A stretch of DNA of 64,000 nucleotides from Amylibacter sp. Its GTDB lineage: Bacteria > Pseudomonadota > Alphaproteobacteria > Rhodobacterales > Rhodobacteraceae. Positions 1,527 to 46,161 of this stretch are shown here, piece after piece. Every line of letters begins with the position of its first letter. The stretch's first letter is position 1. The notes under the pieces are model-generated. The model saw only the letters and a program-made list of their open reading frames with translations. It did no database searches and had not been told where the DNA came from. The position numbers were made by a program, and so were the translations under genes. The stretch lies in assembly GCA_034670045.1 (NCBI GenBank), contig JAXMOF010000011.1:12121-76120 (forward strand), read 5' to 3'.

Positions 1527-3071
1527 ATGGCAGCACGGATCAGAAGCGGAGGCCGCGCCGGCAATACGCGCCGCTCTTCAACCCATGCGATCGAGCAGAT
1601 GCCCTGGCGCAACATCAGGAATATCGACCGACCGACAGAACCGCTGGATGCTGACGGGGTGCAGGCAATCCATAAAGGGGCCATGCATATTCTGTCGCAA
1701 ATCGGGATCAAGATGCTGAACCCCGAGGCCTTGCTGATCCTGAAGGCGGCAGGGTGCAAGGTGGTGGATGAAACCGTTTTTATGGACGAAGATTTCGTGA
1801 TGGAAATGGTTGGCAAAGCGCCCGCTGAATTCACCATCACACCGCGCAATCCTGACAGGCAGGTAACGGTGGGCGGCAATAATCTGGTCTTTGTGAATGT
1901 GTCGTCGCCGCCAAACTACTGGGATTTGGAATCCGGCAAGAAAACCGGTGATTTTGAAAGTTTCCGCAATTTGATGAAATTGACGGGGTATTTCAACTGC
2001 ATCCACGTGGCGGGTGGCTATCCGGTGGAGCCGGTGGATATCCACGCCTCGGTGCGGCATCTGGACTGTGTGCAGGAAAAGCTGTTGCTGACAGATAAGG
2101 CGGTTCATGCCTATTCGCTGGGCAAAGAGCGGGTCGAAGATGTGATGGAAATGGTCCGCATTGCGGGCGGATTAAGTCATGAAGAATTTGACGCCGCTCC
2201 CCGTATGTACACCAATATCAACTCGGTTTCGCCTTTGGTGCATGACTATCCCATGCTGGACGGTGCCATGCGTATGGCACGGCGCAGCCAGCCTGTGGTG
2301 GTGACGCCCTTTACGCTGGCAGGGGCCATGGCCCCCGTCACTATGTCTGGGGCTGTCGCGCTAAGCATTGCCGAAGGTCTGGCCGCGATTGTGCTGTTGC
2401 AGATCATCAATCCGGGCTGTCCCGTGGCCATTGGCACATTCACATCGAATGTTGATATGAAATCCGGCGCGCCTGCTTTTGGTACACCTGAATATATGCG
2501 CGCAACGCAGATGACGGGGCAGATGGGGCGGTTTTACGGGCTGCCGATCCGATCCAGCGGGGTGTGTACGGCAAATGTGCCAGACGGGCAGGCCATGTGG
2601 GAAACCTCAAACAGTCTTTGGGCGGCGGTGCAGTCAGGGTCAAATTTTGTATACCACGCAGCGGGTTGGCTGGAAGGCGGGCTGATTGCCAGCCCTGAAA
2701 AATTCATCATGGATTGCGAAGTCCTGCAAATGATCCAACGCTATATGGAGCCTGCCATCACCAAGACCGGCCCCGAAGAAATCGCCTTGGATGCCATCGC
2801 AGAGGTCGGCCCGCAGGGGCATTATTTTGGCGTACAACATACGCAGGACCGCTATGAAACCGCATTCTACAGCCCGATTGTCAGCGATTGGCGCAATTAC
2901 GAAGCCTGGGACCTGGACGGGGCAAAATGGACGGTCGAGCGGGCGCATCAGACCTATAGAGACATCCTGAACGAATTCACCCCGCCACCGATGGATGACG
3001 CCCTGCGCGAGGAACTGGCGGCGTTCGTGACCAAACGCAAAGCCGAAGGCGGCGCGCCCACGGATTTCTGA
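1527..3071 (+). CDS. Trimethylamine methyltransferase (MttB) family protein, non-pyrrolysine, glycine-betaine methyltransferase-like
   Basis: Motifs TNINSVSPL, PFTLAGAMAP, SGAPAFGTPE and HAAGWLEGGL; no in-frame UAG. GGGAG RBS before ATG at 1527. Confidence 0.9.
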   Translation: MAARIRSGGRAGNTRRSSTHAIEQMPWRNIRNIDRPTEPLDADGVQAIHKGAMHILSQIGIKMLNPEALLILKAAGCKVVDETVFMDEDFVMEMVGKAPAEFTITPRNPDRQVTVGGNNLVFVNVSSPPNYWDLESGKKTGDFESFRNLMKLTGYFNCIHVAGGYPVEPVDIHASVRHLDCVQEKLLLTDKAVHAYSLGKERVEDVMEMVRIAGGLSHEEFDAAPRMYTNINSVSPLVHDYPMLDGAMRMARRSQPVVVTPFTLAGAMAPVTMSGAVALSIAEGLAAIVLLQIINPGCPVAIGTFTSNVDMKSGAPAFGTPEYMRATQMTGQMGRFYGLPIRSSGVCTANVPDGQAMWETSNSLWAAVQSGSNFVYHAAGWLEGGLIASPEKFIMDCEVLQMIQRYMEPAITKTGPEEIALDAIAEVGPQGHYFGVQHTQDRYETAFYSPIVSDWRNYEAWDLDGAKWTVERAHQTYRDILNEFTPPPMDDALREELAAFVTKRKAEGGAPTDF

Positions 3072-3183
3072 ACGGGGTTGAGGCGGATTTTAAGGATTAA
3101 GATTGGCCTGCCGCCGTTCATCCTAGCGCTTTGTTAACATTCTACGCCTATTTCGAAGGGATAGTCTTTGAATAGGTGTATGG

Positions 3184-3777
3184 ATGCATGGAACAATAAA
3201 TCGCGGATTGCAGGGCTATGTCTGCGAAATTTTTGGCGCAGAAACATGGGAAGATGCCTGCGCTTTGGCGGAACTGGCCAATTTCAATTTCGAAACCATG
3301 TTATCCTACGATGATGTCCTGACGGATCGGATCATCAGTGCGCTGACCCAGTTATTGGGCCGTGATCGGGCTGATTTACTTGAAGATTTCGGCACTTTTG
3401 TGGTGTCTGAAAACCATCTGCAATCGGTTCGAAAGTTGCTGCGGTTCGGGGGCGAAACCTATGTGGAATTCCTGCAATCCCTGGAAGATGTGCACGACCG
3501 CGCCAAAATCGCGCTGCCTGATCTGGATGTCCCGTTTTTTGAACTGGAAACCCAATCGGACAGTCAGTTCATTCTGCACTACGAATTTGACAAACTGGGC
3601 TTTGGCGCGGTGTTTCTGGGGTTGCTGCGGGGTATGGCCGATGATTACGGGGCACTGATCCTGATCGACCACATTCCCGTTGCCGCAAACGGCAAGGATT
3701 TGGACAGGTTTGAAATTTCTGTCCTGCAATTGGGCTGGCCGGATGCCGTTCAGGACACGGCGGTGATGCCAGCATGA
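3184..3777 (+). CDS. H-NOX (heme NO-binding) protein
   Basis: N-terminus MHGTINRGL, a YDD motif, LLEDFG, proximal His in FLQSLEDVH, and ADDYGAL. Stop overlaps the downstream GGDEF start (ATGA). Confidence 0.85.
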   Translation: MHGTINRGLQGYVCEIFGAETWEDACALAELANFNFETMLSYDDVLTDRIISALTQLLGRDRADLLEDFGTFVVSENHLQSVRKLLRFGGETYVEFLQSLEDVHDRAKIALPDLDVPFFELETQSDSQFILHYEFDKLGFGAVFLGLLRGMADDYGALILIDHIPVAANGKDLDRFEISVLQLGWPDAVQDTAVMPA

Positions 3778-4808
3778 ATATTGTAACCTTTCCCGACCAT
3801 AAATCCGACGATACCAAGGGGGCTGCAGAAAATGTGATCGCGCAACATTCCGATTTGCTGGATACAATGATGCCGTTTCACGTTTTGGCCAACCGTGATG
3901 GCCAGATCCTGCACGCCGGCCCCAGTTTTCACAAATTGATGCCTGATGAAAAGGTTGTGGGGGCGTCCTTGTTTGATCTTCTAACGGTAAAGCGCCCTGC
4001 AGGTCTGGCTGTCGTTGCTGATATTCTTGTCCATCAAAAGGAAAAACTGTCCATAAACCTGACTGCTTTGCCGGGGCACAACCTGAAAGGCGTGGCCGCA
4101 GGGCTGGGTCAGGGCCATGTGCTGATAGACATCTCGCTTGGCGCGGGGGTGATGGATGTGGTCAGCAAATGTAACCTCAAGAACAAGGATTTTTCACCTG
4201 CCGACCCCACGGTGGAAATGATCTATATGATTGAAGTACAGTCTTTTGTGTATCAGCAGCACAAAAACCAAAGCCATAAATTGCAGGGCGCCAGAGTCCA
4301 TGCAGAGGAGCAGGCTTTCACCGATGCATTGACCGGATTGGCAAACCGGCGCGCGCTGGAAAATCACATGGCGCGATTGTTACGCCGTACCAAAGGCAAC
4401 GGGTTTGCGCTGATGCAGATTGATCTGGATTTCTTTAAGGCGGTGAATGATACCCACGGCCATGCCGCAGGGGATTTTGTCTTGCAGCAAACGGCCCGAA
4501 CCTTGCAAAAGCAAATGCGGGCAACCGATCTTGTGGCGCGGATTGGCGGGGATGAATTTGTAATAATCATGTCCGAATTTGGCAATGAAGCCGCCTTGGA
4601 AGCCGTCGCAAACCGGATAATCGAACAAGTGCGCATCCCCATCCCGTTCGAAGGAGTGGAATGCCAGATCGGTGCCAGTATCGGCGCGACCGTTGTTGAA
4701 AGCGGGGCAGAGCGGACACCGGATGCCATTCTTTCCGACGCAGACCGCGCGCTATATGCGTCAAAAGCCAAGGGGCGCGGGATGTTTCATCTGGATCGGG
4801 ATTTGTAA
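3774..4808 (+). CDS. Diguanylate cyclase with N-terminal H-NOX-associated (HNOBA/PAS-like) region
   Basis: DALTGLANRR, DLDFFKAVNDTHGHAAGD, intact GGDEF and an RxxD I-site (RATD). The N-terminal MPFHVL...DFSPADPTVEM region resembles HNOBA. Confidence 0.92.
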   Translation: MNIVTFPDHKSDDTKGAAENVIAQHSDLLDTMMPFHVLANRDGQILHAGPSFHKLMPDEKVVGASLFDLLTVKRPAGLAVVADILVHQKEKLSINLTALPGHNLKGVAAGLGQGHVLIDISLGAGVMDVVSKCNLKNKDFSPADPTVEMIYMIEVQSFVYQQHKNQSHKLQGARVHAEEQAFTDALTGLANRRALENHMARLLRRTKGNGFALMQIDLDFFKAVNDTHGHAAGDFVLQQTARTLQKQMRATDLVARIGGDEFVIIMSEFGNEAALEAVANRIIEQVRIPIPFEGVECQIGASIGATVVESGAERTPDAILSDADRALYASKAKGRGMFHLDRDL

Positions 4809-5068
4809 CAGGTTGTATGCCACAATTGGGTCATATTTCCCCCTGGAATTAGCCTGAAATTGCTGGTTTCCCTTGGGGAAGTCAGAGGGTTTTAGCCCGT
4901 AATCAGGCCGAAATAGGGCAGTTTGAACGGGATGAACAGAGTGTTTCCAGATGTAGGATAATCCAAATTTGGGGACAGGTGCTTTGCCAAAAAACAATGG
5001 CCTGATTCTAACCTATCCAAATGGACGGCTTTTTCAGTTTAGTAGTTATTTTTTGAGATGTGTTTTTA

Positions 5069-5084
5069 TTAACAGTATGTTACA
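5069..5084. promoter_or_regulatory. Imperfect CtrA-type box (TTAA-CAGTATG-TTAC)
   Basis: One mismatch to TTAA-N7-TTAA, in an AT-rich intergenic region where such matches arise easily. Confidence 0.3.
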
Positions 5085-5126
5085 GGCTAATCTTGAAACC
5101 GATTTCAGAATTTATCCCACTCTCAG

Positions 5127-5214
5127 GTGAATTAAATTCACTTAAATTCGCATCGAAAATACAGTGATTTTCCCACTAAATTCCTGCCAAATTATCACCA
5201 AATTTTATGAAAAT
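5127..5214. promoter_or_regulatory. Palindrome GTGAAT-TAA-ATTCAC followed by helically phased A/T tracts
   Basis: Tracts start at 5134, 5144, 5156, 5167, 5178, 5189, 5200 and 5210, about 11 bp apart. Confidence 0.55.
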
Positions 5215-5374
5215 AGGGCTGGTTTGACGCCGCACCTCCCAAATGTGCAAAAATCATGTTCCTAGGACTCGGTTAATTTGGTAAATATAGGGCATCGTCA
5301 TGTTGGCGATTGTAACCAATCCGCGGTTCATCTGTTCGTTCCGAACCGCCAGATTAAACGAGTGTGAGAGTAAA

Positions 5375-5596
5375 ATGGGCAAGGCCGTAAAACCAGAAGC
5401 TATCGTATCAAATCGTCGTTTTGTGTTGGCCGATAACCTGCGTCCGCGGGCTTGGCACGAACTACAAAAAACAGAATCCGGTTTCGGAGCACCGACCCCG
5501 GTCACACGCCATTTCGATGGTCGTGATGACGGGATGACAGCGGATCCGGAATTGCAAAGCGCAATCAAACAAGCCCTGTCAGGTTTGAACTCCTAA
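5375..5596 (+). CDS. Small hypothetical protein (73 aa)
   Basis: GAGAG RBS at 5366-5370 then ATG at 5375. Followed by a hairpin with a U-tract. No recognised domain. Confidence 0.55.
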   Translation: MGKAVKPEAIVSNRRFVLADNLRPRAWHELQKTESGFGAPTPVTRHFDGRDDGMTADPELQSAIKQALSGLNS

Positions 5597-5647
5597 TTCA
5601 AAACACAAGGGCGCGACAAAAGCTGCGCTGGCGACTGGAAGATATAC

Positions 5648-5700
5648 ACCCCGCATTCGCTACGTTCTCACTCGCGTTGCTCGGCGGGGTTTTGTTTTTC
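5648..5700 (+). terminator. Probable intrinsic terminator
   Basis: Outer stem ACCCCGC...GCGGGGT followed by TTTGTTTTTC, between the convergent small ORF and receiver gene. Confidence 0.5.
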
Positions 5701-5728
5701 AGAGTTGCTTGCCGGGGTAGGGCAGTGG

Positions 5729-6124
5729 TTATTCAGCGCCGCTACACCGAGACTCCCATATTTCGGTTAGCTGTGCTGCCAATGTCATCGGATTGAACGG
5801 TTTTGGGATAATTTCCAACGCATCGGTGTTTTTCATCAGCATTTCAGAAGCAACTGCCGATTGTGCGGTCATGAATACAGCAGGTGTTTTCTGGAAGGCG
5901 GGCATTTTGCGCAAATGTTGCAGAACCTCTTCGCCGGTCATGATCGGCATCATTTGATCCAGCAAGATAAGATCAGGTTGAAATCCCTCGATGCTTTCCA
6001 GCGCCTTGGGGCCGTCGAAAAACTGTGCCAATTCCATGCCGCCGACCACTTCCAGGGCCAAACGGGTGATTTCTTGGATATCTTCGTCGTCTTCCACGTG
6101 GAGAACGCGTTTTAAACCAGTCAT
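5729..6124 (-). CDS. Single-domain response regulator (CheY-like receiver)
   Basis: Acidic pocket VEDDEDI, phospho-Asp in LILLDQMMP, FMTA and KPF. AGGTGG RBS. No output domain. Confidence 0.92.
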   Translation of the reverse strand: MTGLKRVLHVEDDEDIQEITRLALEVVGGMELAQFFDGPKALESIEGFQPDLILLDQMMPIMTGEEVLQHLRKMPAFQKTPAVFMTAQSAVASEMLMKNTDALEIIPKPFNPMTLAAQLTEIWESRCSGAE

Positions 6125-6313
6125 TGCGCCACCTATCTCTTGCTTCGTGATTGCGCCAATCGCGCAGGGTTTCAAGCGTAAGTTGTGTTTGTATCAAAAA
6201 TGCAACCAATTCCACATCAATTTAATGTATTAAGAGTTGCTTCATAAATAACCATAGCGTGTATTGTCCGGTAAAGTACATAATCATCCCAAAAAAATGA
6301 GGCGCGTGTTTTC

Positions 6314-8386
6314 ATGATGGGTATGAAAAAAAACGTGTTTGCAGTGACGAAAACAGGTCTGTTGCAGGCAGCAATACTTTTGGTTGGCTTCGGGTGCATC
6401 ACCTATACGATCGAAGTGTACAACCTTCAAACCGAAGTTTCCGATCTTCGCGGGGAATTAAGCGAAGTCGGGGATTTGAAACGGGCAAAGATCGAGCAGC
6501 AGTTGAATGCTGCCCTGTTGTTGTCCCGCGCGCTTAGTGTGGCCATCGAACTGGAACCCGATACCATTGATCAGGCCCGATATTCCAAGATCGCGGCCAA
6601 AATGATCGAGAATAATTCGAGTGTCATTAATGTGGCGGCCGCACCTGACCTGATTGTAAAATTCGTCCATCCGGTGAAAGAGAATGCCTCTGTTATCGGT
6701 CTGAATTATCGGGAAAATGAAGCACAATATGCTGCGGCCAAACAGACGATGGATTTGGGAAAACCCGTTCTGGCAGGACCATTAAATCTGGTTCAGGGCG
6801 GTGAAGCCTTTATTCTGCGTAACGTGATCCACGGCCCCGAGGATCAGGGCGCCCCCGCTACAGAGCTGGGGATCGTTTCGGTTGTGCTGGATAAAGGCAA
6901 GTTTCTAGCAAGCCTGCATTCTGAAGCGGATGAAACCATCCAGAATATTGCCATTCGAAAGGTGACTGCGGATTCCGGCGGCAATAGCTCCTTTGTTGCG
7001 ATCTCGGGGGATCAGGGGCTGTTTGACGGCGACCCTGTGATCATGGACGTCAATGTGCCATCGGGGAAGTGGCAGCTGGCATTGCAGCCCGTCAATGGTT
7101 GGCCTGTGGTCTCTGAATATTTCTTGCGTAATCTGTTGGCTTTTGTGCTGGTTCTTGGCTCCGTTCTGGCGCTGTTTACCATTCTAAACCGCATCCGCAG
7201 CAGCAAAGAAGTTGCAGAAGTGCGCTTGCGCACAGCTTTGGAAGCCTGCGATCAGGGCTTTGCACTTTATGACGCCGAAGACAGGCTGGCCCTGTGCAAT
7301 ACCCGCTTTATGCAGGATAATAATCTGTCATCCGCGCAGGTCAAACAACGCCCCTTGTTTGAAGAAATTCTGCGGTCCGGAATAAGCGAAGGCAGGTATC
7401 ACACGGGCGAGGATCAGGATGAAAACTGGATAAAACAGCGGCTTGAAACCCATAATCAACTGGCTTCGGTGCAGCATCTTAAATTGCCGGATCAAAGGTG
7501 GTTAAAGGTTTCCAATAAAAAACTGCCGGATGGTGGTGTGATTTCTTTTGCTGTGGATATTTCCGAAATTATCAAGGCGAAAGAACTCGCTGAATCGTCG
7601 GAAAAGGCCAAAATGCGCTTTATGGATGCGGTCAGTCACGAGCTGAAAACGCCTCTGAGCATCTTGTTGGGCTACACCGCGTTTCTGGAAAATCCCGAGC
7701 ATTTAAAATCTGTCGCCGCGCTGAAAAAGCAAGCTGGCGACAATGAAACATTCCAAACCAATCTTGAGCATGTGGACGCAGTGACCAGCGAAGTGAAGGG
7801 CCATGCAGGGCGGATCAAAACGGCTGGATTGCAACTGCAAACGCTGATTGAAAAGGTGCTGGAATTCACATCGCCCAAAGCAGAAACGCCAGTGGTTCAG
7901 GATAAAACCATTCGCGCAGGGCAGGTTATCGGGCCTATTGCGGAACGGTTTCGCACCGAAGCTTCGCAAAAAGGGTTGGAATTTTCGGTTATTATCGAAG
8001 AAACCACACTTCAGGCCGACCCGCTGCATGTGGAACGGGTGCTGTGCCGGATGATTGAAAATGCCATTCAGACCACAGAGGTCGGGTCGATCAAAATTTC
8101 GGTCAAACCCAGTGGCGATTTCGTGAAGATCATGGTGCGTGACACCGGGTCCGGATTTCACAGAGAAATTGACGGGCCTGAGGAAGACGCGCAAAGCTTC
8201 CAGTCTGATCTGGTTGATTTCATCAAATCGGACGGGTTTGTGGCAGGACCAGCCGAGTTGGAAACCGCGAGCGGTGACGTGACGGTTGATTTTGATCGGG
8301 GGCACGGGAAATTGGTAACGTTCACGTTGCCCATTCTACGTGACAGCCGAAAAGCAGTGGCCAAGAACGTGGAGGCGGCTGAGTAA
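6314..8386 (+). CDS. Membrane CHASE-PAS sensor histidine kinase with degenerate ATP-binding domain (pseudokinase-like)
   Basis: Two TM segments flank a CHASE-like region (HPVKENASVIGLNY...VLAGPLNLVQGG). PAS-like LEACDQGFALYD. H-box SHELKTPL and DTGSG are present, but there is no G2 GxGLGL. Confidence 0.8.
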   Translation: MMGMKKNVFAVTKTGLLQAAILLVGFGCITYTIEVYNLQTEVSDLRGELSEVGDLKRAKIEQQLNAALLLSRALSVAIELEPDTIDQARYSKIAAKMIENNSSVINVAAAPDLIVKFVHPVKENASVIGLNYRENEAQYAAAKQTMDLGKPVLAGPLNLVQGGEAFILRNVIHGPEDQGAPATELGIVSVVLDKGKFLASLHSEADETIQNIAIRKVTADSGGNSSFVAISGDQGLFDGDPVIMDVNVPSGKWQLALQPVNGWPVVSEYFLRNLLAFVLVLGSVLALFTILNRIRSSKEVAEVRLRTALEACDQGFALYDAEDRLALCNTRFMQDNNLSSAQVKQRPLFEEILRSGISEGRYHTGEDQDENWIKQRLETHNQLASVQHLKLPDQRWLKVSNKKLPDGGVISFAVDISEIIKAKELAESSEKAKMRFMDAVSHELKTPLSILLGYTAFLENPEHLKSVAALKKQAGDNETFQTNLEHVDAVTSEVKGHAGRIKTAGLQLQTLIEKVLEFTSPKAETPVVQDKTIRAGQVIGPIAERFRTEASQKGLEFSVIIEETTLQADPLHVERVLCRMIENAIQTTEVGSIKISVKPSGDFVKIMVRDTGSGFHREIDGPEEDAQSFQSDLVDFIKSDGFVAGPAELETASGDVTVDFDRGHGKLVTFTLPILRDSRKAVAKNVEAAE

Positions 8387-10301: not shown

Positions 10302-10378
10302 TGGTACCAGCGCCCCGGCTCGAACGGGGGGCCTCTTGATCCACAATCAAGCGCTCTAACCTACTGAGCTACGCCGGC
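10302..10378 (-). tRNA. tRNA-His (GUG)
   Basis: Minus strand reads GCCGGCGTAGCTCAG...CTTGA-TTGTGGA-TCAAG...GTTCGA...CGCTGGT-A-CCA. CCA is encoded. Confidence 0.97.
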
Positions 10379-37408: not shown

Positions 37409-38557
37409 TTGACAAAAGGGGCAGAAACTTTGTCAAAAGTTAACACACCTAAAGCCGGGTTAATGGCTCTTTTCGTTGTGGCGTTCGCCGTGTCATCCTG
37501 TGGATTGCCGCGACCTGGACCCAATAAACGGGAAATTTTCGCAGGCAGCGTCCAACAACAGGGCAACGCCTACATTGTTTCCGTGAATGATCGTGTGGTT
37601 CAGGCAACGGCGGATGCGCCGAATGCCGGTTTTGACTCGGAATTCCTGAAAGCGGGCAACATCGGCGCGGATACAATCCGGCGCGGTGATAAACTGCTGC
37701 TGACGGTCTATGAAAACGTCGAAGAGGGGCTGTTTGGCACCGCCGGCGCGCCCTCGACCCTGACGGAATTGCAAGTGGACCAGACGGGCCACATCTTTAT
37801 TCCTTACGCGGGCCGCATTCGCGCTGCTGGTAACACGCCCGAGGCGTTGCGCCAGATCATCACGCGCAAGCTGGACGCACAAACTCCTGACCCGCAATTC
37901 ATCGTCGCCCGCGCGGCAGGGGACGGATCAACCGTTTCCATCGTTGGCGCTGGTGGTCAGGGCGTTTTCCCGATCGAGGCTTCGACCAGCACGCTGTCAA
38001 CTATGATCGCAGCGGCAGGGGGTGTGACCACCGATCCAGAAAACACCCGCGTCAGTGTGATCCGTGGCTCCCATAAGGGCACCGTCTGGCTGGAAGACCT
38101 GTTTGCCAGCAACGAACAAGACATCGCCCTGCGCCCCGGCGATCGTATCCTGATTCAGGAAGACACCCGCCGTTTCACCGCTCTTGGTGCCATGGGCGGG
38201 CAATCCCTTGTCGAATTCCCCCAACCCACGATGAATGCAATCGAAGCCATTGCCTTTATGGGCGGTTTGAACAGTAATCTGGCCGACCCGACGGGTATTT
38301 TCATCTTCCGCGATGAATCCGCCGAATATGCAAACCGTGTTTTGGGGCGCAATGATTTCACAACACCAAAGCGGTTTGCCTATGTTTTGGATCTGACAGA
38401 ACCAACAGGCGTGTTTTTGGGGCGTGATTTTGAAATCCGTGACGGCGACACGATCTATGTGACCGAGGCACCTTACGTGCAATGGACCAAAACACTGTCT
38501 GTCCTGACATCCAGCGCGGGTGCTGCAAATTCACTTGCAGCGGCAACAGGTGGCTAA
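37409..38557 (+). CDS. Outer-membrane polysaccharide export lipoprotein (Wza/KpsD family)
   Basis: Lipobox AVSSC, PES motif (VDQTGHIFIPYAGRI), SLBB-like repeats and DGDTIYV. Exact start uncertain. Confidence 0.88.
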   Translation: MTKGAETLSKVNTPKAGLMALFVVAFAVSSCGLPRPGPNKREIFAGSVQQQGNAYIVSVNDRVVQATADAPNAGFDSEFLKAGNIGADTIRRGDKLLLTVYENVEEGLFGTAGAPSTLTELQVDQTGHIFIPYAGRIRAAGNTPEALRQIITRKLDAQTPDPQFIVARAAGDGSTVSIVGAGGQGVFPIEASTSTLSTMIAAAGGVTTDPENTRVSVIRGSHKGTVWLEDLFASNEQDIALRPGDRILIQEDTRRFTALGAMGGQSLVEFPQPTMNAIEAIAFMGGLNSNLADPTGIFIFRDESAEYANRVLGRNDFTTPKRFAYVLDLTEPTGVFLGRDFEIRDGDTIYVTEAPYVQWTKTLSVLTSSAGAANSLAAATGG

Positions 38558-38575
38558 GGCCGCCCACCCGAACCT

Positions 38576-40642
38576 ATGAAACGCCAAAGACCCGCGCATT
38601 TGCCTGAAAACAGCACGCGGGTCTTTGGCTTTTCGTTAAGCTTCTTTTTCAACAGACCTTTGCGAACGGCTTTAGCTGGCGCAGGATTAAAGCCGCGCTT
38701 TGGCTGGCCGCGATCGGGGGATAACGTGTTGATTTGGGGGCGAAAACCCACATCAAGCCGCGGCATCCGCATGGCCCGGGCCACGGGTGCGCACCTTATA
38801 ACGGCCGAGGACGGGTTCCTGCGATCCGTGCAAACGGGGCGTCAGGGGGATGCGCCTTTGTCGCTGATTGCGGACCGTCAGGGCATCTATTTCGAACCCG
38901 ACCGCCCAAACGATCTGCGGGATCTCTTGCGCGATGGTCCCGTTCTGGACAAGGCGCAAACCCAAGCGGCCTCTGAAGGAATTGCGCTTCTGCGTGAGGC
39001 CCATTTATCGAAATACAATGATTTTGATCTGGCGGTGCCTGACTTGCCGGACCCGTTTGTACTGGTTGTGGATCAAACCTTCGGGGATGCCTCGATCAAA
39101 GGGGCGGGGGCGGATGCGGGGGTGTTCCAACAGATGCTGGACGCAGCACTGGCCGCGCATCCTGACGCGACAATCCTGATCAAGACCCATCCCGAAACGC
39201 TGGCGCAAAAACGCCGTGGCTATTTTGACATTGGCGATCAATCCGAACGGGTTGTTCTGTTCACCGAACCTGTGTCACCGTGGATTCTGCTGGATCGCGC
39301 CCGCGCGGTTTATTGCGTGTCTTCGCAAATGGGGATGGAAGCGATATTCGCAGGCCACCGCCCCGTGGTTTTTGGCAATGCGTTTTATTGCGGATTGGGT
39401 CTGACCGAGGATCGCCATCCGGATGTGATCCAAATCGGTCATCGCAGCACGGAGCAGTTGTTCCACGCGGTCTATATTAACTATTGTAACTGGATTGATC
39501 CCTATACAAACCGCGCGTCGGATTTCACCGCAACCGCGCAGTCATTGGCGGCCATGGCAGGGTTCAGGCGTGCCCATTCCAAGGCGAAAATCTTTGTCGG
39601 TATGCGCCTATGGAAGCGCGGGTTCTTGCGCGGTTTTTTCGATCAGGGCAGCGGTGCGCCGCAGTTTATCGAAAACGCGGTTCAGGCGGCGCAGGCTGCG
39701 AAACAGAAAAACGGCAGCGTTTATGTCTGGTCCGGCAAGGAAACCGTGCAATTGGCGCAGGCTTGTGCCGACGCAAAGGTTCCACTGGTGCGGGTTGAGG
39801 ACGGTTTTTTGCGCTCTGCGGGCTTGGGGGCTGCGCTTGTTGCGCCCGTGTCTTTGGCGCTGGATGATCTGGGAATTTACTATGACCCGACCCGTGAAAG
39901 CCGTTTGGAAAGGCTTATAGCGCGCAACGCAAAGCTGTCCGAAGGCAAGCGTACGCGGGCAGCGGCGTTGCGGCAGGCAATTACCGCGCTTGGCCTGTCA
40001 AAGTATAACCTGAAGGCAACAGGGCAGGTCGATTTACCCAAAGACCGCCATCTGGTTCTGGTACCGGGTCAGGTGGAGGATGATCAATCCATCCTGAAAG
40101 GCACCTCTACTGTCAGCAATAATCTGGCCCTGCTACAGCAGGCGCGCCAGCGGTTTGGCGACAGTTTTATCCTCTATAAACCCCATCCGGACGTGTTGGC
40201 GGGGCTGCGGGACGGCGGGGAAGCCATGGCGGAAATCGCGCAGATTGCTGATCTGGTGGTAGAGCAAGCCGATATCTCCGCACTGCTGGATCAGGTGGAT
40301 TGCGTGGCCACGATGACTTCGCTCACAGGGTTCGAGGCGTTGCTGCGTGGCAAAGACGTCGTCTGTTACGGCGCACCGTTTTACGCAGGCTGGGGGCTGA
40401 CCGAAGATTTGGGCGACGTGCCTGAACGGCGGGTCGCACGGGTGAGCATCGAAGGTCTGATCCATGCGGCATTGGTGGATTATCCGCTGTATTGGGACCC
40501 GATAACAGGGCGGCCTTGTGCGGTGGAAACCGTGTTGGGACGTTTCGCAACAGGGCAGGTGACGGGAAAGAAACGGTTCGGGATCAAGGCTTTGGCCAAG
40601 GTGCAGGGGGTCTTTGCCAGCTACGCCCATTTGTGGCGCTGA
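38576..40642 (+). CDS. kpsC: Capsular polysaccharide export protein, KpsC family (beta-Kdo transferase, two domains)
   Basis: Duplicated EDGFLRS, KYN, K(T/P)HP, SQMG/SLTG and FY(C/A)G(L/W)GLT motifs. Confidence 0.92.
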   Translation: MKRQRPAHLPENSTRVFGFSLSFFFNRPLRTALAGAGLKPRFGWPRSGDNVLIWGRKPTSSRGIRMARATGAHLITAEDGFLRSVQTGRQGDAPLSLIADRQGIYFEPDRPNDLRDLLRDGPVLDKAQTQAASEGIALLREAHLSKYNDFDLAVPDLPDPFVLVVDQTFGDASIKGAGADAGVFQQMLDAALAAHPDATILIKTHPETLAQKRRGYFDIGDQSERVVLFTEPVSPWILLDRARAVYCVSSQMGMEAIFAGHRPVVFGNAFYCGLGLTEDRHPDVIQIGHRSTEQLFHAVYINYCNWIDPYTNRASDFTATAQSLAAMAGFRRAHSKAKIFVGMRLWKRGFLRGFFDQGSGAPQFIENAVQAAQAAKQKNGSVYVWSGKETVQLAQACADAKVPLVRVEDGFLRSAGLGAALVAPVSLALDDLGIYYDPTRESRLERLIARNAKLSEGKRTRAAALRQAITALGLSKYNLKATGQVDLPKDRHLVLVPGQVEDDQSILKGTSTVSNNLALLQQARQRFGDSFILYKPHPDVLAGLRDGGEAMAEIAQIADLVVEQADISALLDQVDCVATMTSLTGFEALLRGKDVVCYGAPFYAGWGLTEDLGDVPERRVARVSIEGLIHAALVDYPLYWDPITGRPCAVETVLGRFATGQVTGKKRFGIKALAKVQGVFASYAHLWR

Positions 40643-42371: not shown

Positions 42372-42456
42372 TGTATTCGGCATCTTGTGTCGCCTTGGTT
42401 GACGGATGCGATGGGAAATTGATAGTCTGAAACCTACTGTTTCATTGGGGATTGTA

Positions 42457-42999
42457 ATGCTGGGAAAAGCGCTGGACTGGGTTGGTCTGCGGGCAAATCT
42501 GTTTGTGACTATTTTGGCGATCTTGGTCGCCGTTAACGTACCTTTTCAACTATACCTTCATAAAACCACGCCTTTGCTGGCCTGGAAGGGGGGTGGATTT
42601 GGCATGTATACCGAACCCCATGCCGAAGATCGCGCTGTTTGGCTTCATCTGGAAGGGGAGGGCGGGACGGCGTTCCTGCAACTCTGGCCTGAAACAACGG
42701 ATTTTTCGGAATGGCGTCAAACAGCCCGCGTCAGTGGCGGCGCTTATCTGGCGGCACTGACGAAAAACGCAGAGCGGTTCAGGTTCTATCCCAAGGATGT
42801 ACAAGCTGCCCGTTTGATCAACCAATTGTCCCGTGTGCGGTGGCCAGAGACACTGGTTGGGCAGGTTTCCCCTGAAAATGACGCCACTTTTGCGCCGGAA
42901 AGGTTAACAATCGAGGTTTATGAAAACCGCTACGATCTTGAAAGCAATATAGTCACGCGGAACAGTGTGTACAAATACTCTGGTTTGAGGACGGAATGA
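42457..42999 (+). CDS. Hypothetical single-TM protein with a WKGGGFGMY motif (partner of the HTTM-like protein)
   Basis: N-terminal TM helix then WKGGGFGMYT. Stop overlaps the next ATG. Alternative start at 42406. Confidence 0.7.
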   Translation: MLGKALDWVGLRANLFVTILAILVAVNVPFQLYLHKTTPLLAWKGGGFGMYTEPHAEDRAVWLHLEGEGGTAFLQLWPETTDFSEWRQTARVSGGAYLAALTKNAERFRFYPKDVQAARLINQLSRVRWPETLVGQVSPENDATFAPERLTIEVYENRYDLESNIVTRNSVYKYSGLRTE

Positions 43000-43895
43000 T
43001 GGTTGCTTTTCGAGATCGCAAATTCATTTCCCCCATCGCGCGGTTTGTAAGTGACGAATATATCCCCACGTTACTTTCTCTTTTTGCGGCAATAGTGTTC
43101 GTTTTCTTTACGTCAAAAGAATACATCCCGTTTGGTGCACGTTTTTTCATGCCGTTTCTTCTCTTGCTACTGGTGACAGCAACCGAGATGCGGACGCGCG
43201 CAATCCTGTTGTTCTGGATTGTGCTGGGTTTGGCCCTGAATGTGGGGATGAATTACTATGTGGTCGCCAACCACGGGTTTATGATCACTTACATTGGCCT
43301 TGCCCTGATGATTGCTTGTGCCTCTGGTAACACGGCGCCCGCTGTAATGTCCCGCGCTGCCGTTTTGTTGATTAGCATCCTTATGGGGCTGGCTTTGATC
43401 CAGAAAATTGTGTCGGCCCATTACATGAGCGGGGCCTTGGTGGGCGGGTATCTGGCGAATGGTTATATGTTCAAGACGTTGATTTCGCTATTTTATTCGG
43501 ATTGGCCTGAAGTGGTGAAACAAAATCTGGATCCGCAGAAAATGCTGCTGGCGCAAACGCCCGGACTTGGCGCCACGGTATCGCTGACGGTCCCGCCCTT
43601 GATCCAACTGCTGGCAATTGTTTTGACCTATGCTGCGCTTGCCTCGCAGACGCTGATCGAACTGTTTATATTATTCCGAAACCGTTTCGGAATTTGGACA
43701 CATTATGCCGTGTTGCTGTTTGTGTTGATTATCTATTCGACACGGAATGAAAATATTTTTCTGTCGATGAACCTGATCCTGGGCTATGCGATTACAGACG
43801 AGCATACCAAACAGGCGCGCCTGTGGTATGTGCTCGGGATTGCCTATCTTTTGAGTATGGAGATGATGGGGCTGCGCCCCGGGATTATCGGTTGA
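42996..43895 (+). CDS. Polytopic membrane protein, HTTM / vitamin-K-dependent-carboxylase-like
   Basis: About 8 TM segments; NHGFMITY and ALIQKIVSAHYMSG resemble the HTTM motifs NH-x-Y/F and K-L-x4-W/Y-x-x-G. Confidence 0.6.
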   Translation: MMVAFRDRKFISPIARFVSDEYIPTLLSLFAAIVFVFFTSKEYIPFGARFFMPFLLLLLVTATEMRTRAILLFWIVLGLALNVGMNYYVVANHGFMITYIGLALMIACASGNTAPAVMSRAAVLLISILMGLALIQKIVSAHYMSGALVGGYLANGYMFKTLISLFYSDWPEVVKQNLDPQKMLLAQTPGLGATVSLTVPPLIQLLAIVLTYAALASQTLIELFILFRNRFGIWTHYAVLLFVLIIYSTRNENIFLSMNLILGYAITDEHTKQARLWYVLGIAYLLSMEMMGLRPGIIG

Positions 43896-43944
43896 GCCGA
43901 ACATTTTGTGCAGCGCTGAACGAGCAGCAAAGCGAGCATTGGCA

Positions 43945-44712
43945 TCAGTTTGCAGGCTCGATTTGTGTCACAGCGTTGCCGCCTATGATCGAATTCGCTT
44001 TGGCGTAGTCTTCTGTGAAGGCGGCGACAACATCCCTTAGGGCTTCCATCGCGCCGTATTCGATGTCGGATTCACTTTGGCGGGCGCTTCCACTCCATGT
44101 GGTGGTGTTAAGCATTATGGACGTGTCGCGGGTTAAAACCACCAACTGTGTCAGGCCCAAAGAAACTGACCAGGGTTTACAGCCCACGACCTCGACAGAA
44201 TAGCGCAGGGTTAATGTGGGTTTGCCGGGGGTGGTCTCAACCTCTTCCTTTGTTAACAGGGGGATGCCAGCTTGTTGCAATTGGCTAATCACATAGGAAT
44301 GAACGGTTTCCCCGAAATTTCCGGTAAACGTACGGGGGCCGCGGACAGCGCGAAAATCGACGAAAACGCCATTTAACCCACCTAAAGTCGCCACCTTATC
44401 TGCGAGCGTTAGAGGCGTTGTGTCGATTGAGGTCAACTCCTTTGGGGGCGGCTGGGACAGGCATAATGGGGATGTTTCATGGCTTACATTGGCAGCTCCG
44501 TAAGTCTGCGCAGAAGGGGCTAAATTGTTGAAAAATGTTTGGGCTTCCGCCGGCGGAACATCCAATAACAAGTGACTGCGGAACTGTGATTTCGGCTGGC
44601 CGTTAACCACACGTTCCCACATAACCCACAGGTTATTATGCTCTTGCGAGTGAGCAGTGGCCGTCCAGATCAGACAGACCCACAACAGCAATGAAAGGCG
44701 TAAGCAGCGCAA
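43945..44712 (-). CDS. Secreted hypothetical protein
   Basis: GGAGGA RBS and TTG start; signal peptide ending TATAHS; no recognised function. Confidence 0.7.
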   Translation of the reverse strand: MRCLRLSLLLWVCLIWTATAHSQEHNNLWVMWERVVNGQPKSQFRSHLLLDVPPAEAQTFFNNLAPSAQTYGAANVSHETSPLCLSQPPPKELTSIDTTPLTLADKVATLGGLNGVFVDFRAVRGPRTFTGNFGETVHSYVISQLQQAGIPLLTKEEVETTPGKPTLTLRYSVEVVGCKPWSVSLGLTQLVVLTRDTSIMLNTTTWSGSARQSESDIEYGAMEALRDVVAAFTEDYAKANSIIGGNAVTQIEPAN

Positions 44713-44763: not shown

Positions 44764-44845
44764 CCCGAAGGCTGTCAAATGCAATCCTTCGTTGCAGCCG
44801 CTGAATTCCGTTGATTTTCAGGTGTTTCGCCCGCATCCTATTCGG

Positions 44846-45511
44846 ATGCGAATGCTTCTTCTTTTACTATGCCTGACGGCTTGTGGCCGCCCGATGTCCG
44901 AAAGCGAGGTGGCTTTTGCGTCCAAATTTCACGGTGCAGGACTGGACGTGACCAAGGTTCGTCTGATCGACAATGCGCCGGTGCGGTCCTATACGTTAAA
45001 GGCCCCCAAGCGCCCGCGTATCGCCTGTACAGAGCGGGTCTATCCTCCTCCGAAGACACAGATCGTGACGGGGGCGCCATCTGCTGTGGCACTGTTTAAC
45101 CGAATATTCGTAAATCCGGACTACTATTTGGAAAACTACACGCCGCAATACCCGGAAAGGTTACATCTATATCAGGCAATGTTTCTGGCCCATGAACTGA
45201 CCCATGCATGGCAGTGGCAGAACCGCAAAATCACGGGCTATCACCCGATCAAGGCCGCACGTGAACATCAGTCAAAAGCGGATCCCTATTTGATTGATCC
45301 GGATACGGGAGGGGATTTCCTGTCCTATGGCTATGAACAGCAAGGAAGGATTGTTGAAGAGTATCTGTGTTGCGCAACGCTTGATCCCACAGCGCCCAGA
45401 ACTCTACGTTTGCGCAAGATGTTGGGGGCATATTTTCCACTGGAAAAGTTGCCTGTAAGGGAGGTTATCGTGGGGTGGAGAGATGTAAAAATTGAGGGGA
45501 TTTGTCGGTAG
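44846..45511 (+). CDS. Lipoprotein with HExxH zincin-like motif (DUF4157-like from memory)
   Basis: Lipobox LTAC; AHELTHAWQWQ; distal YGYEQQG. Confidence 0.75.
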   Translation: MRMLLLLLCLTACGRPMSESEVAFASKFHGAGLDVTKVRLIDNAPVRSYTLKAPKRPRIACTERVYPPPKTQIVTGAPSAVALFNRIFVNPDYYLENYTPQYPERLHLYQAMFLAHELTHAWQWQNRKITGYHPIKAAREHQSKADPYLIDPDTGGDFLSYGYEQQGRIVEEYLCCATLDPTAPRTLRLRKMLGAYFPLEKLPVREVIVGWRDVKIEGICR

Positions 45512-45522
45512 GTTGGGTGGAA

Positions 45523-46161
45523 ATGGTCAAAAATAGGAAAAAGAAATCTGCTCATTCATTGGAAGATTGGGCAGATTTAATCAAATCTAAAGGAATGGCA
45601 GGGGAACTAGCCTCAAATACCGATGTGGAGCGCGCGGTTGTTGAGGAAAGTGTTTGTAGGGAGTGGGTTCAAGCCATGCGGTTGAAGTGGGCGGTCAATT
45701 TGGATCTTGCGGGACCAAGTGAAAGTGACCCACCTGATTATTACGTATTCAGCAATGGAACAAAAAAGTCTGTTGAACTAACCGAACTCAAAGATGGTCT
45801 TTTCGAGAAGAAATTTTCTCTCGCCAAAATGAAATTGGAATCTTACTCGGCTTATGGTGGAGAGGGATTTTCTGAAACCCAATGGGATCAGAACAGGTTC
45901 GAAAACGAAATCAAAAACAGAATTTCGAAGAAGGATATGAAATACACTGCAAAAGGCTACTATTTTGATGTCTTGCTCATTTATTCAGGTGAGCAGTGGT
46001 TGTTGCCGACGGATGTTCTAAACTGGCTGGAAAGGATTGCGATCGATAGTCCGAACGCGTTTGCCTCTGTGTATTTTCTATTGAAATATTCACCCGGCTT
46101 TTCAAACGAACACTGGCCGATTTTTCACCTTGCGGGGAAAAAGATCGGCCAGCATCTGTAG
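45523..46161 (+). CDS. Hypothetical protein, possible PD-(D/E)XK nuclease-like fold
   Basis: AT-rich ORF with DPPD-x11-ELTEL. Confidence 0.55.
   Translation: MVKNRKKKSAHSLEDWADLIKSKGMAGELASNTDVERAVVEESVCREWVQAMRLKWAVNLDLAGPSESDPPDYYVFSNGTKKSVELTELKDGLFEKKFSLAKMKLESYSAYGGEGFSETQWDQNRFENEIKNRISKKDMKYTAKGYYFDVLLIYSGEQWLLPTDVLNWLERIAIDSPNAFASVYFLLKYSPGFSNEHWPIFHLAGKKIGQHL

Follow-up and report, generated by a model that had tools for sequence, protein, structure and literature searches.

A two-gene membrane module of Amylibacter, proposed as a divergent, split relative of HTTM-type enzymes

The subject of this study is a pair of overlapping genes in a stretch of 64,000 nucleotides from Amylibacter sp. 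(Rhodobacteraceae), taken from GenBank assembly GCA_034670045.1 (contig JAXMOF010000011.1, positions 12,121 to 76,120 of the forward strand) and referred to below, at its full length, as the window. The first gene encodes a single-pass membrane protein of 180 amino acids (the small subunit), and the second a multi-pass membrane protein of 299 amino acids (the large subunit). We put at roughly 60% the probability that the pair is a deeply divergent, split, two-subunit enzyme resembling HTTM proteins, the family represented in the membrane region of human gamma-glutamyl carboxylase (GGCX), and one that is invisible to Pfam. The features of the locus are listed here, where A1 denotes the close homologues of the large protein, A2 the homologues of the small protein, A3 a set of 101 diverse members of the large-protein family, and TM transmembrane.

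42399..42426, + strand: candidate sigma-70-like promoter, TTGACG-16-GATAGT, 5' of the small gene (consensus scan, 9/12 matches, weak)
42457..42999, + strand: small subunit gene, 180 amino acids (list of open reading frames, homologue alignment A2, AlphaFold2 model, substitution rates)
42493..42561, + strand: predicted TM helix of the small subunit, about residues 13-35, with invariant N27 and Q31 (model; Q31 invariant in A2)
42574..42621, + strand: juxtamembrane loop L40-H55 of the small subunit, LAWKGGGFGMYTEPH (invariant in 18 homologues, A2)
42996..42999, + strand: ATGA start/stop overlap of the small and large genes, consistent with translational coupling (sequence)
42996..43895, + strand: large subunit gene, 299 amino acids (list of open reading frames, AlphaFold2 model, homologues, loop charge)
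43266..43280, + strand: ANHGF motif (N92, H93), predicted periplasmic TM3-TM4 junction (invariant in A1)
43380..43433, + strand: LMGLALIQKIVSAHYMSG motif (K137, Y143, G146), predicted periplasmic end of TM5 (conservation in 101 members)
43740..43784, + strand: TRNENIFLSMNLILG motif (R250, E252, N253, F255), predicted periplasmic TM7-TM8 turn (invariant in A1)
43888..43900, + strand: weak candidate terminator hairpin, 3' end of the operon (pattern scan, 5-bp stem)

Both genes are real and under purifying selection. Measured against five orthologous loci, the ratio of nonsynonymous to synonymous substitution rates (dN/dS) of the pair is 0.07-0.22 wherever dS is unsaturated, with values of 0.1-0.2 for the small gene. 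The ATG of the large gene and the TGA of the small gene share the ATGA at 42996-42999, and overlaps of 1-4 bases recur in six of the other loci compared here (L017, L018, L019, L026, L027 and L029). An alternative, longer reading of the small open reading frame (ORF) begins at ATG 42406; we prefer the start at 42457 because the alignment of homologues begins there and because the promoter-like site occupies 42399-42426. The number of hairpins around the pair is not above that of shuffled sequences in the pattern scan, so the terminator candidate is weak, and the Rfam scan found no match near the locus. With moderate confidence, we read the pair as one operon for a predicted two-subunit integral membrane enzyme.

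An initial annotation of this DNA had described two genes coupled by an ATGA overlap, one for a single-TM protein with the motif WKGGGFGMY and the other for a protein of about eight TM segments with NHGFMITY and a further motif. Both ORFs are found on the + strand with that overlap, the AlphaFold2 model of the small protein contains one TM helix, and the motifs lie where they should: WKGGGFGMY at residues 43-51 of the small protein, NHGFMITY at residues 92-99 of the large protein, and the second large-protein motif, ALIQKIVSAHYMSG, at residues 133-146. The number of TM segments has to be corrected, as the AlphaFold2 model of the large protein (mean predicted local distance difference test score, pLDDT, 86; predicted template modelling score, pTM, 0.81) shows nine membrane-length helices. 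In the loops that the model assigns to the cytoplasm the density of lysine plus arginine is 0.195, versus 0.067 in the periplasmic loops, and the amino terminus of the large subunit is therefore placed in the cytoplasm (N-in). With this topology, N92-H93 at the TM3-TM4 junction and K137 at the end of TM5 both fall on the periplasmic face, as do the 60-residue segment between TM5 and TM6 and R250-x-E252-N253 in the turn between TM7 and TM8.

The residues that cluster on this face are also the ones that are kept. ANHGF and LMG.A..QK are invariant in the close homologues of the large protein, and the retention of the histidine and lysine, as initially proposed, holds both near and far: 24 close homologues (alignment A1) all carry H93 and K137, and among the 101 diverse members, at about 20% identity, N92 is invariant, H93 is kept in at least 90%, and K137 and G146 are kept in at least 90%. 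Indeed, N92, H93, K137, G146 and F255 are the sole invariant or near-invariant residues in that set. Tyrosine or phenylalanine stands at +6 from K137 across the large-subunit superfamily, R-x-E is common and F255 is near-invariant, giving a family signature of [AP]NH.[FY]L..Y ... FA..[QH]KL.SP.[YF].[DS]G ... R.E..F; conserved cysteines are absent from the large subunit.

The small protein is modelled (AlphaFold2, pLDDT 83) with a short cytoplasmic amino terminus, one TM helix and a periplasmic domain of beta-beta-alpha-alpha-alpha-beta-beta order. When the protein is folded alone, the loop at residues 37-50 has a pLDDT below 50, and this low-confidence loop is exactly the invariant WKGGGFGMYTEPH block, as might be expected of a loop that forms an interface. 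The WKGGGFGMYTEPH loop and the domain of about 125 residues that follows it lie on the same periplasmic face as the large-subunit motifs. Homologues of the small protein number 27 at E<=1e-3. The loop is kept as W[KRQ]G[GA]G[FY]GM[YF] in the partners found in eight distant lineages, and a glutamine occupies the same TM position in distant small partners as well. The only match of the small protein in PDB sequence searches was to an MbtH-like protein (6ea3; E 0.005; residues 49-109, window 42601-42783), and this identity was rejected, the match being judged probably a chance one on a conserved LWPE..W stretch.

A key finding from the comparison of loci is that the two genes travel together, as the initial annotation had supposed. 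The count covers 19 loci of the Amylibacter clade, the metagenome locus L035 and eight distant lineages, and the genes co-occur at every locus with readable upstream DNA. The small gene lies directly upstream of the large gene in 15/15 genome loci of the Amylibacter/Neptunicoccus clade, and in 5/5 metagenome loci, with readable upstream DNA. Within Amylibacter and Neptunicoccus the slot is constant (kpsC, ribD, nrdR, small gene, large gene, with rpoD further on), and pairing at the level of the clade alone could reflect plain vertical inheritance. Beyond it, in 9/9 sampled distant lineages, a small ORF of about 130-220 amino acids abuts or overlaps the start of the large gene, and in eight of these nine the small ORF encodes an amino-terminal TM helix with a glutamine and, about 12 residues further on, W[KRQ]G[GA]G[FY]GM[YF]. 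These eight lineages are about 20-25% identical and their neighbourhoods are wholly different; because pairing persists across such distances and settings, we consider the two-gene module real and ancient. At the ninth distant locus, L028, a miscalled start of the small gene conceals the motif: with the start as called (L028:342-728, MYSDPHP...), TM helix and W.GGGFG motif are truncated. The real start must be further upstream, and the discrepancy is a gene-calling error in the source. No fused small-plus-large protein occurs among the top 150 representatives, whose lengths are 63-341 amino acids.

Several loci carry variants of this arrangement. Small and large genes occur as tandem duplicated pairs in L017 and L018. 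In L017 the two pairs occupy 2764-5858, the second small partner has an amino-terminal DCC1-like domain, and the large paralogue that goes with it has Asn-Asp in place of Asn-His; this paralogue may be a diverged or inactive copy. In L016, a metagenome-assembled genome of Amylibacter, the large gene (3233-6423) is split in two by about 2.2 kb of insertion sequence (IS) elements, comprising IS3-type orfA/orfB at 4038-5428 and IS5-like fragments at 3771-4136 and 5452-5934. The split copy is probably a pseudogene, or the product of assembling a polymorphic insertion.

The family is large and unannotated. The close homologues of the two proteins, 47 in the case of the large one, are unnamed "hypothetical proteins" of Amylibacter, Neptunicoccus and Roseobacter sp. 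N2S, and an exhaustive profile search recovers 569 representatives (50%-identity clusters) at E<=1e-3, 160 of them at E<=1e-10, mostly of about 260-315 amino acids together with some shorter fragments. A metagenome scan with profile A6 found six loci, mostly from the Amylibacter clade, and a scan with the subclass profile A5 found none; tblastn of the large protein against plasmids likewise gave no match. Nothing relevant came up when the two proteins and three neighbours were scanned with Pfam, NCBIfam and PADLOC, and the NCBIfam SdpB model matched none of the 101 diverse members. On the evidence of these profile searches, the large protein belongs to a widespread superfamily that current hidden Markov model (HMM) libraries leave unannotated.

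A neighbourhood analysis for recurring substrate genes had been proposed at the outset; the gene that recurs beside the pair is instead one for a DCC1-like CxxC protein. In L016 it is an ORF of 143 amino acids with FDGTCILCNGF, convergent to the large gene and overlapping its end, and by tblastn a DCC1-like gene is likewise placed in L006-L016 and in each of the six metagenome loci (L030-L035), 17 locus entries altogether (for example L016:6420-6851 and L035:4420-4821, both on the minus strand). The large protein of L035 is just 38% identical to that of the window, yet its DCC1-like gene is present. The gene beside the pair encodes a full-length DCC1-like domain (DUF393, PF04134; Pfam E about 1e-26), and in the very distant L017 a small-type partner carries a fused DCC1-like amino terminus (PF04134, E 8e-4). 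A genuine HTTM gene of Paracoccus has a DCC1-like neighbour too, and it is this neighbour that is the best tblastn match (E 1e-8) of the DCC1-like sequence from L017. By tblastn there is no DCC1-like gene at the pair or anywhere in the 64 kb of the window, nor at this position in L001-L005; in the window and L001-L005 unrelated genes, orf255 (minus strand) and orf239 (plus strand), follow the pair. The DCC1-like protein probably serves the same redox cycle as the pair.

Whether the large subunit is related to HTTM proteins was examined with profile-profile alignments. Bona fide bacterial HTTM proteins, all with PF05090 and PF22777, were collected by tblastn of plasmids and by a search seeded with a Paracoccus albus protein, and together with human GGCX (a sequence identical to PDB chain 13ib_A) they form a 20-sequence profile, A4. 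Null scores for hhalign came from reversed profiles and from profiles shuffled within blocks, block-order permutation being invalid for local scores, as it preserves the motifs. In local mode, A3 against A4 scores 28.0 (P 0.008), versus 20.7 and 21.5 for reversed and 11-20 for shuffled nulls, and the alignment begins at the lysine motif and spans three further TM helices. In global mode the score is 24.5 (P 1.2e-4), versus about 3.5 for reversed nulls and 0.7-10.3 for 30 block-order permutations, with one at 19.7. The global alignment is collinear, setting ANH on LNH, QKL.SP.Y..G on VKL.PDW..G, TM1 on TM1 and the last TM helix on the one that precedes the HTTM lumenal domain. In the profile-profile alignments ANHGF is paired with HTTM YLNHFY, and the K137 motif with HTTM AGLVKLTPDWLAG, whose lysine is GGCX K218. 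For three non-overlapping subclass profiles the top local alignments fall in the NH-NH register, with P down to 0.004, in the Lys-Lys register, where they span 78-112 columns at P 0.02-0.1, or in both; overall, the NH-NH register is chosen by the full profile and two subclass profiles, and the Lys-Lys register by the full profile and three subclass profiles. On the strength of these alignments, the large subunit is a probable, not a proven, homologue of HTTM.

A considerable body of negative results weighs against this kinship, and against the split HTTM-like enzyme as a whole. The hhalign probabilities are low (5% for the local and 28% for the global alignment), none of four subclass profiles succeeds in global mode, no hhalign signal comes from the low-diversity subclass of the window by itself, and hhalign against the single GGCX sequence is not significant. 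Neither window protein matches Pfam or NCBIfam models at E<=1, none of the 101 diverse large-family members matches Pfam HTTM at E<=0.1, and reciprocal hmmsearch between the family and the HTTM sets yields at most 7.7 bits versus 5.2 for reversed nulls. Searches of PDB sequences with A1, A2 and A3 recovered no GGCX, many entries of which are present in the copy used. The similarity of fold to HTTM or GGCX that had been put forward as a check is not seen: Foldseek of both confident AlphaFold2 models against PDB (library dated to April 2026) found no GGCX match, with best E values of 0.08 and 0.01 and TM-scores below 0.25, and returned only ABC-transporter and proteasome noise. The large family is also without HTTM's long TM1-TM2 loop and its invariant TM1 arginine. 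For the small protein, no DUF5819, SdpA or VKGC-lumenal model matches, seven diverse small partners are likewise without a Pfam SdpA or DUF5819 match at E<=1, and its profile scores 19.1 against the HTTM lumenal region, inside the null range (maximum 20.5); in the forced alignment the TM glutamines do coincide, and W43 falls on the invariant tryptophan of HTTM. The suggested equivalence of WKGGGFGMY with the GYSWDMM motif of GGCX thus finds no statistical backing, and homology of the small-subunit domain to the HTTM lumenal domain is unproven. No substrate gene is conserved beside the pair across the examined loci. Finally, Rhodobacterales are by taxonomic description ubiquinone-10 organisms and are not known to have menaquinone, which makes a vitamin-K-type cofactor doubtful. 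Of the original proposal of a split HTTM/GGCX-like enzyme, then, the architecture, the residue conservation and the co-occurrence of the genes stand, and the HTTM relationship is plausible; the structural similarity is not seen with Foldseek, and the small-subunit motif match lacks statistical support.

The surroundings of the pair are varied. The flanks are nrdR/ribD and rpoD in the clade of the window and unrelated genes elsewhere, among them glycosyltransferase/sulfotransferase clusters (L026, L027), an epimerase (L017) and aromatic-catabolism genes (L018, L023). Capsule-type export genes, for a Wza-like protein of 382 amino acids and a KpsC-like protein of 688 amino acids, occupy 37409-40642 (+) of the window, about 1.8 kb upstream of the pair and separated from it by ribD and nrdR. 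Downstream lie orf255 at 43945-44712 (-), secreted-looking and without a family match, and orf239 at 44792-45511 (+), a lipoprotein-like sequence (LTAC lipobox) with a HELTH zinc-peptidase motif that follows the pair in L001-L006; neither is kept with the pair beyond its closest relatives. The HExxH lipoprotein gene is separated from rpoD by an ORF of 219 amino acids at 45502-46161 (+), for which tblastn found no counterpart in any related locus, and the closest relative, L001, has an equal-sized gap at that position; the region may be a small variable cassette. The sole Rfam match in the window is a tRNA gene at 10305-10378 (-). A role in defence was rejected, given the lack of any PADLOC match and the housekeeping syntenic slot.

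How, then, might the pair work? If it is a split HTTM-like enzyme, the TM helix of the small subunit would pack against the bundle of the large subunit, and its loop would close the active-site pocket, as the linker between the transmembrane and lumenal domains of GGCX (GLYGYSWDMM) does and as is also predicted for the DUF5819 partner of a split bacterial HTTM protein. Purely by analogy, K137 would be the general base that attacks a membrane hydroquinone, N92 and H93 would hold or position the substrate group, and the enzyme would modify a periplasmic or envelope substrate, with the DCC1-like CxxC protein, in relatives that have it, serving the redox cycle. The same facts could be assembled differently, as a membrane thiol/quinone redox module in which the large subunit is a quinone-binding scaffold of DoxX/MauE/HTTM type, the small subunit docks a client, and electrons pass between the quinone pool and the DCC1-like CxxC protein or a periplasmic client, with SdpAB-dependent maturation of a disulfide peptide as the closest analogue. 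We consider this unlikely, but it has points in its favour: the only recurrent neighbour is a thiol-disulfide oxidoreductase gene of DCC1-like type, fused to the small partner in L017; a genuine HTTM protein (P0278) is labelled DoxX/SURF4 family by JGI (Joint Genome Institute); and the vicinity of the pair shows no gene for a carboxylation substrate. Five of the 101 members also touch MauE, one DoxX and one DoxX_3 (Pfam, best E 0.005), but these matches involve few members and fall far below gathering thresholds, and the window large protein itself matches none of the three models. Against a redox module stand, moreover, the near-invariant Asn-His and Lys, which are the catalytic signature of GGCX, in a subunit without conserved cysteines, and the subclade of the window, which keeps the pair under purifying selection without an adjacent DCC1-like gene.

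A less likely account still is that the family is unrelated to HTTM, that NH and K are convergent, and that the pair makes up a two-subunit envelope enzyme or transporter of independent origin, one that might modify or flip a lipid-linked polysaccharide, for instance. The uniformly negative HMM and fold searches against HTTM and GGCX speak for it, and some settings fit it, including the glycosyltransferase/sulfotransferase clusters and the epimerase beside distant members, the capsule-export genes upstream of the window pair and a weak Pfam match to PMT_2 in one of the 101 members. The settings are inconsistent, however, as other members sit among aromatic-catabolism genes (L018, L023) or beside housekeeping nrdR, ribD and rpoD; in addition, the profile-profile alignments repeatedly choose the NH and Lys registers of HTTM in the right order, and the association with DCC1-like genes mirrors HTTM systems. 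Least probable of all, and very improbable in our judgement, is a non-catalytic membrane scaffold, or a chaperone in the export or maturation of some secreted protein whose gene lies elsewhere in the genome. The NCBI models for SdpA and SdpB are named as export proteins, and split HTTM pairs have no known biochemical activity, but near-invariant Asn, His, Lys, Arg and Glu buried at the membrane interface across relatives of about 20% identity are typical of catalysis, and no client gene is conserved.

SdpAB and the DUF5819 prediction already stand for this kind of system, in which a split HTTM enzyme is accompanied by a single-TM partner and a DCC1-like protein; the window family is a new, highly divergent and widespread variant of it that current profile libraries miss. 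It is tempting to speculate, and we do so tentatively, that the pair represents a hitherto overlooked, HMM-invisible clade of two-subunit HTTM-like enzymes, which comprises 569 or more clusters (50% identity) and is kept both in marine Alphaproteobacteria with ubiquinone as their only quinone and in many other bacteria. In that case the quinol/O2 "strong base" chemistry that a lysine drives in the vitamin-K-dependent carboxylase would operate with other quinols too, and on envelope or small-molecule substrates, and the DCC1-like CxxC protein would be a recycling partner, as VKOR is for GGCX. Bacterial HTTM proteins are numerous, and to our knowledge functional data exist only for MloH, SdpAB and a Leptospira epoxidase. 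The family adds several hundred clusters that are now left hypothetical and that keep the Asn-His and Lys of the carboxylase reaction centre, and its minimal architecture (subunits of 299 and 180 amino acids, with an optional CxxC protein of 140 amino acids) makes it tractable for work on ancestral HTTM chemistry and quinol choice. As the family is present in cultured strains of Neptunicoccus and Amylibacter, knock-outs and point mutants are feasible, and both protein families merit profile models and annotation as a linked pair.

Among known systems, the Bacillus subtilis pair SdpA/SdpB (TIGR04034/TIGR04033), which is required for maturation of the SdpC toxin, resembles the window pair in having a small gene followed by a multi-pass HTTM-type gene in one operon, each of the two being needed along with the other. 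SdpA, unlike the small subunit of the window, is not known to have a clear membrane anchor. The window proteins, unlike that pair, match neither the NCBIfam SdpA and SdpB models nor Pfam SdpA (PF17418), and no sdpC-like substrate or immunity genes lie adjacent to the window pair or to the relatives examined. The fused HTTM plus VKGC-lumenal proteins (Paracoccus albus WP_271073465, and MloH of malonomycin biosynthesis) share the order of motifs, with NH, then K-L-x-x-D-W-x-x-G, then TM-Gln ... W-x-G-x-G ... F-S-W-R-M, and a DCC1-like neighbour; they differ in being single chains of about 460 amino acids with strong PF05090 and PF22777 matches, whereas the window family is split, small then large. 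A canonical fused HTTM gene of Chondrinema lies in a cluster (L021:453-6777) of imelysin, di-haem oxidoreductase, imelysin, HTTM and TonB-dependent receptor genes, which suggests an iron-related role for that branch.

The comparison with human GGCX (PDB 9BUM, 9L54, 13IB and others) is closer in layout than in sequence. GGCX has nine TM helices and a reaction centre on the lumen side made of K218, N159/H160 and the linker (Y395, M401) between the transmembrane domain and the propeptide-binding domain (10.1101/2025.02.09.637231). Shared with the window pair are the nine TM helices, the cytoplasmic amino terminus and the extracytoplasmic position of the reaction centre (a proposed one in the window pair), with Asn-His before TM4 and, where TM5 ends, Lys. 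Both also have a TM helix that bears a conserved Gln and leads into a Gly- and aromatic-rich linker, which enters the active site in GGCX and is proposed to do so in the window pair. The lysine motif of GGCX, K218...W223..G226, compares with K137, Y/F at +6 and G146 in the window family. GGCX is, in contrast, a single chain of 758 amino acids with a large propeptide-binding and Arch lumenal domain, and the window family lacks the long TM1-TM2 loop, the TM1 Arg and any HMM or Foldseek similarity to it.

The nearest precedent for a split arrangement is an adjacent gene pair of Melghirimyces thermohalophilus, which encodes a DUF5819 protein with an amino-terminal TM helix and an HTTM-DCC1-like fusion (10.64898/2026.08.19.745780). 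An AlphaFold 3 model of that complex resembles the whole of GGCX, the TM helix of the partner replacing a GGCX helix; Leu59 and Phe60 of the partner, just after the TM helix, contact the predicted quinone (vitamin K) pocket, which conserved K189 and W195 of the HTTM protein line (10.64898/2026.08.19.745780). As in the window pair, the genes are adjacent, the partner consists of an amino-terminal TM helix and a domain of about 150 amino acids, an aromatic residue stands at +6 from the lysine (K189/W195 there, K137/Y143 here), a DCC1-like CxxC domain is part of the system (for the window family, in relatives), and the invariant loop of the window pair holds the same place after the TM helix. The differences are that the window proteins match neither the DUF5819 nor the HTTM Pfam model, that the DCC1-like domain is fused to the large subunit there and is a separate convergent gene or a fusion with the small partner in relatives of the window pair and missing from the window itself, that the large subunit of the window has nine helices of its own, and that the host is an alphaproteobacterium and not a member of the Bacillota. 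What the window family reproduces, as in the DUF5819/HTTM-DCC1 system and in GGCX, is the three-part system and the placement of the conserved residues.

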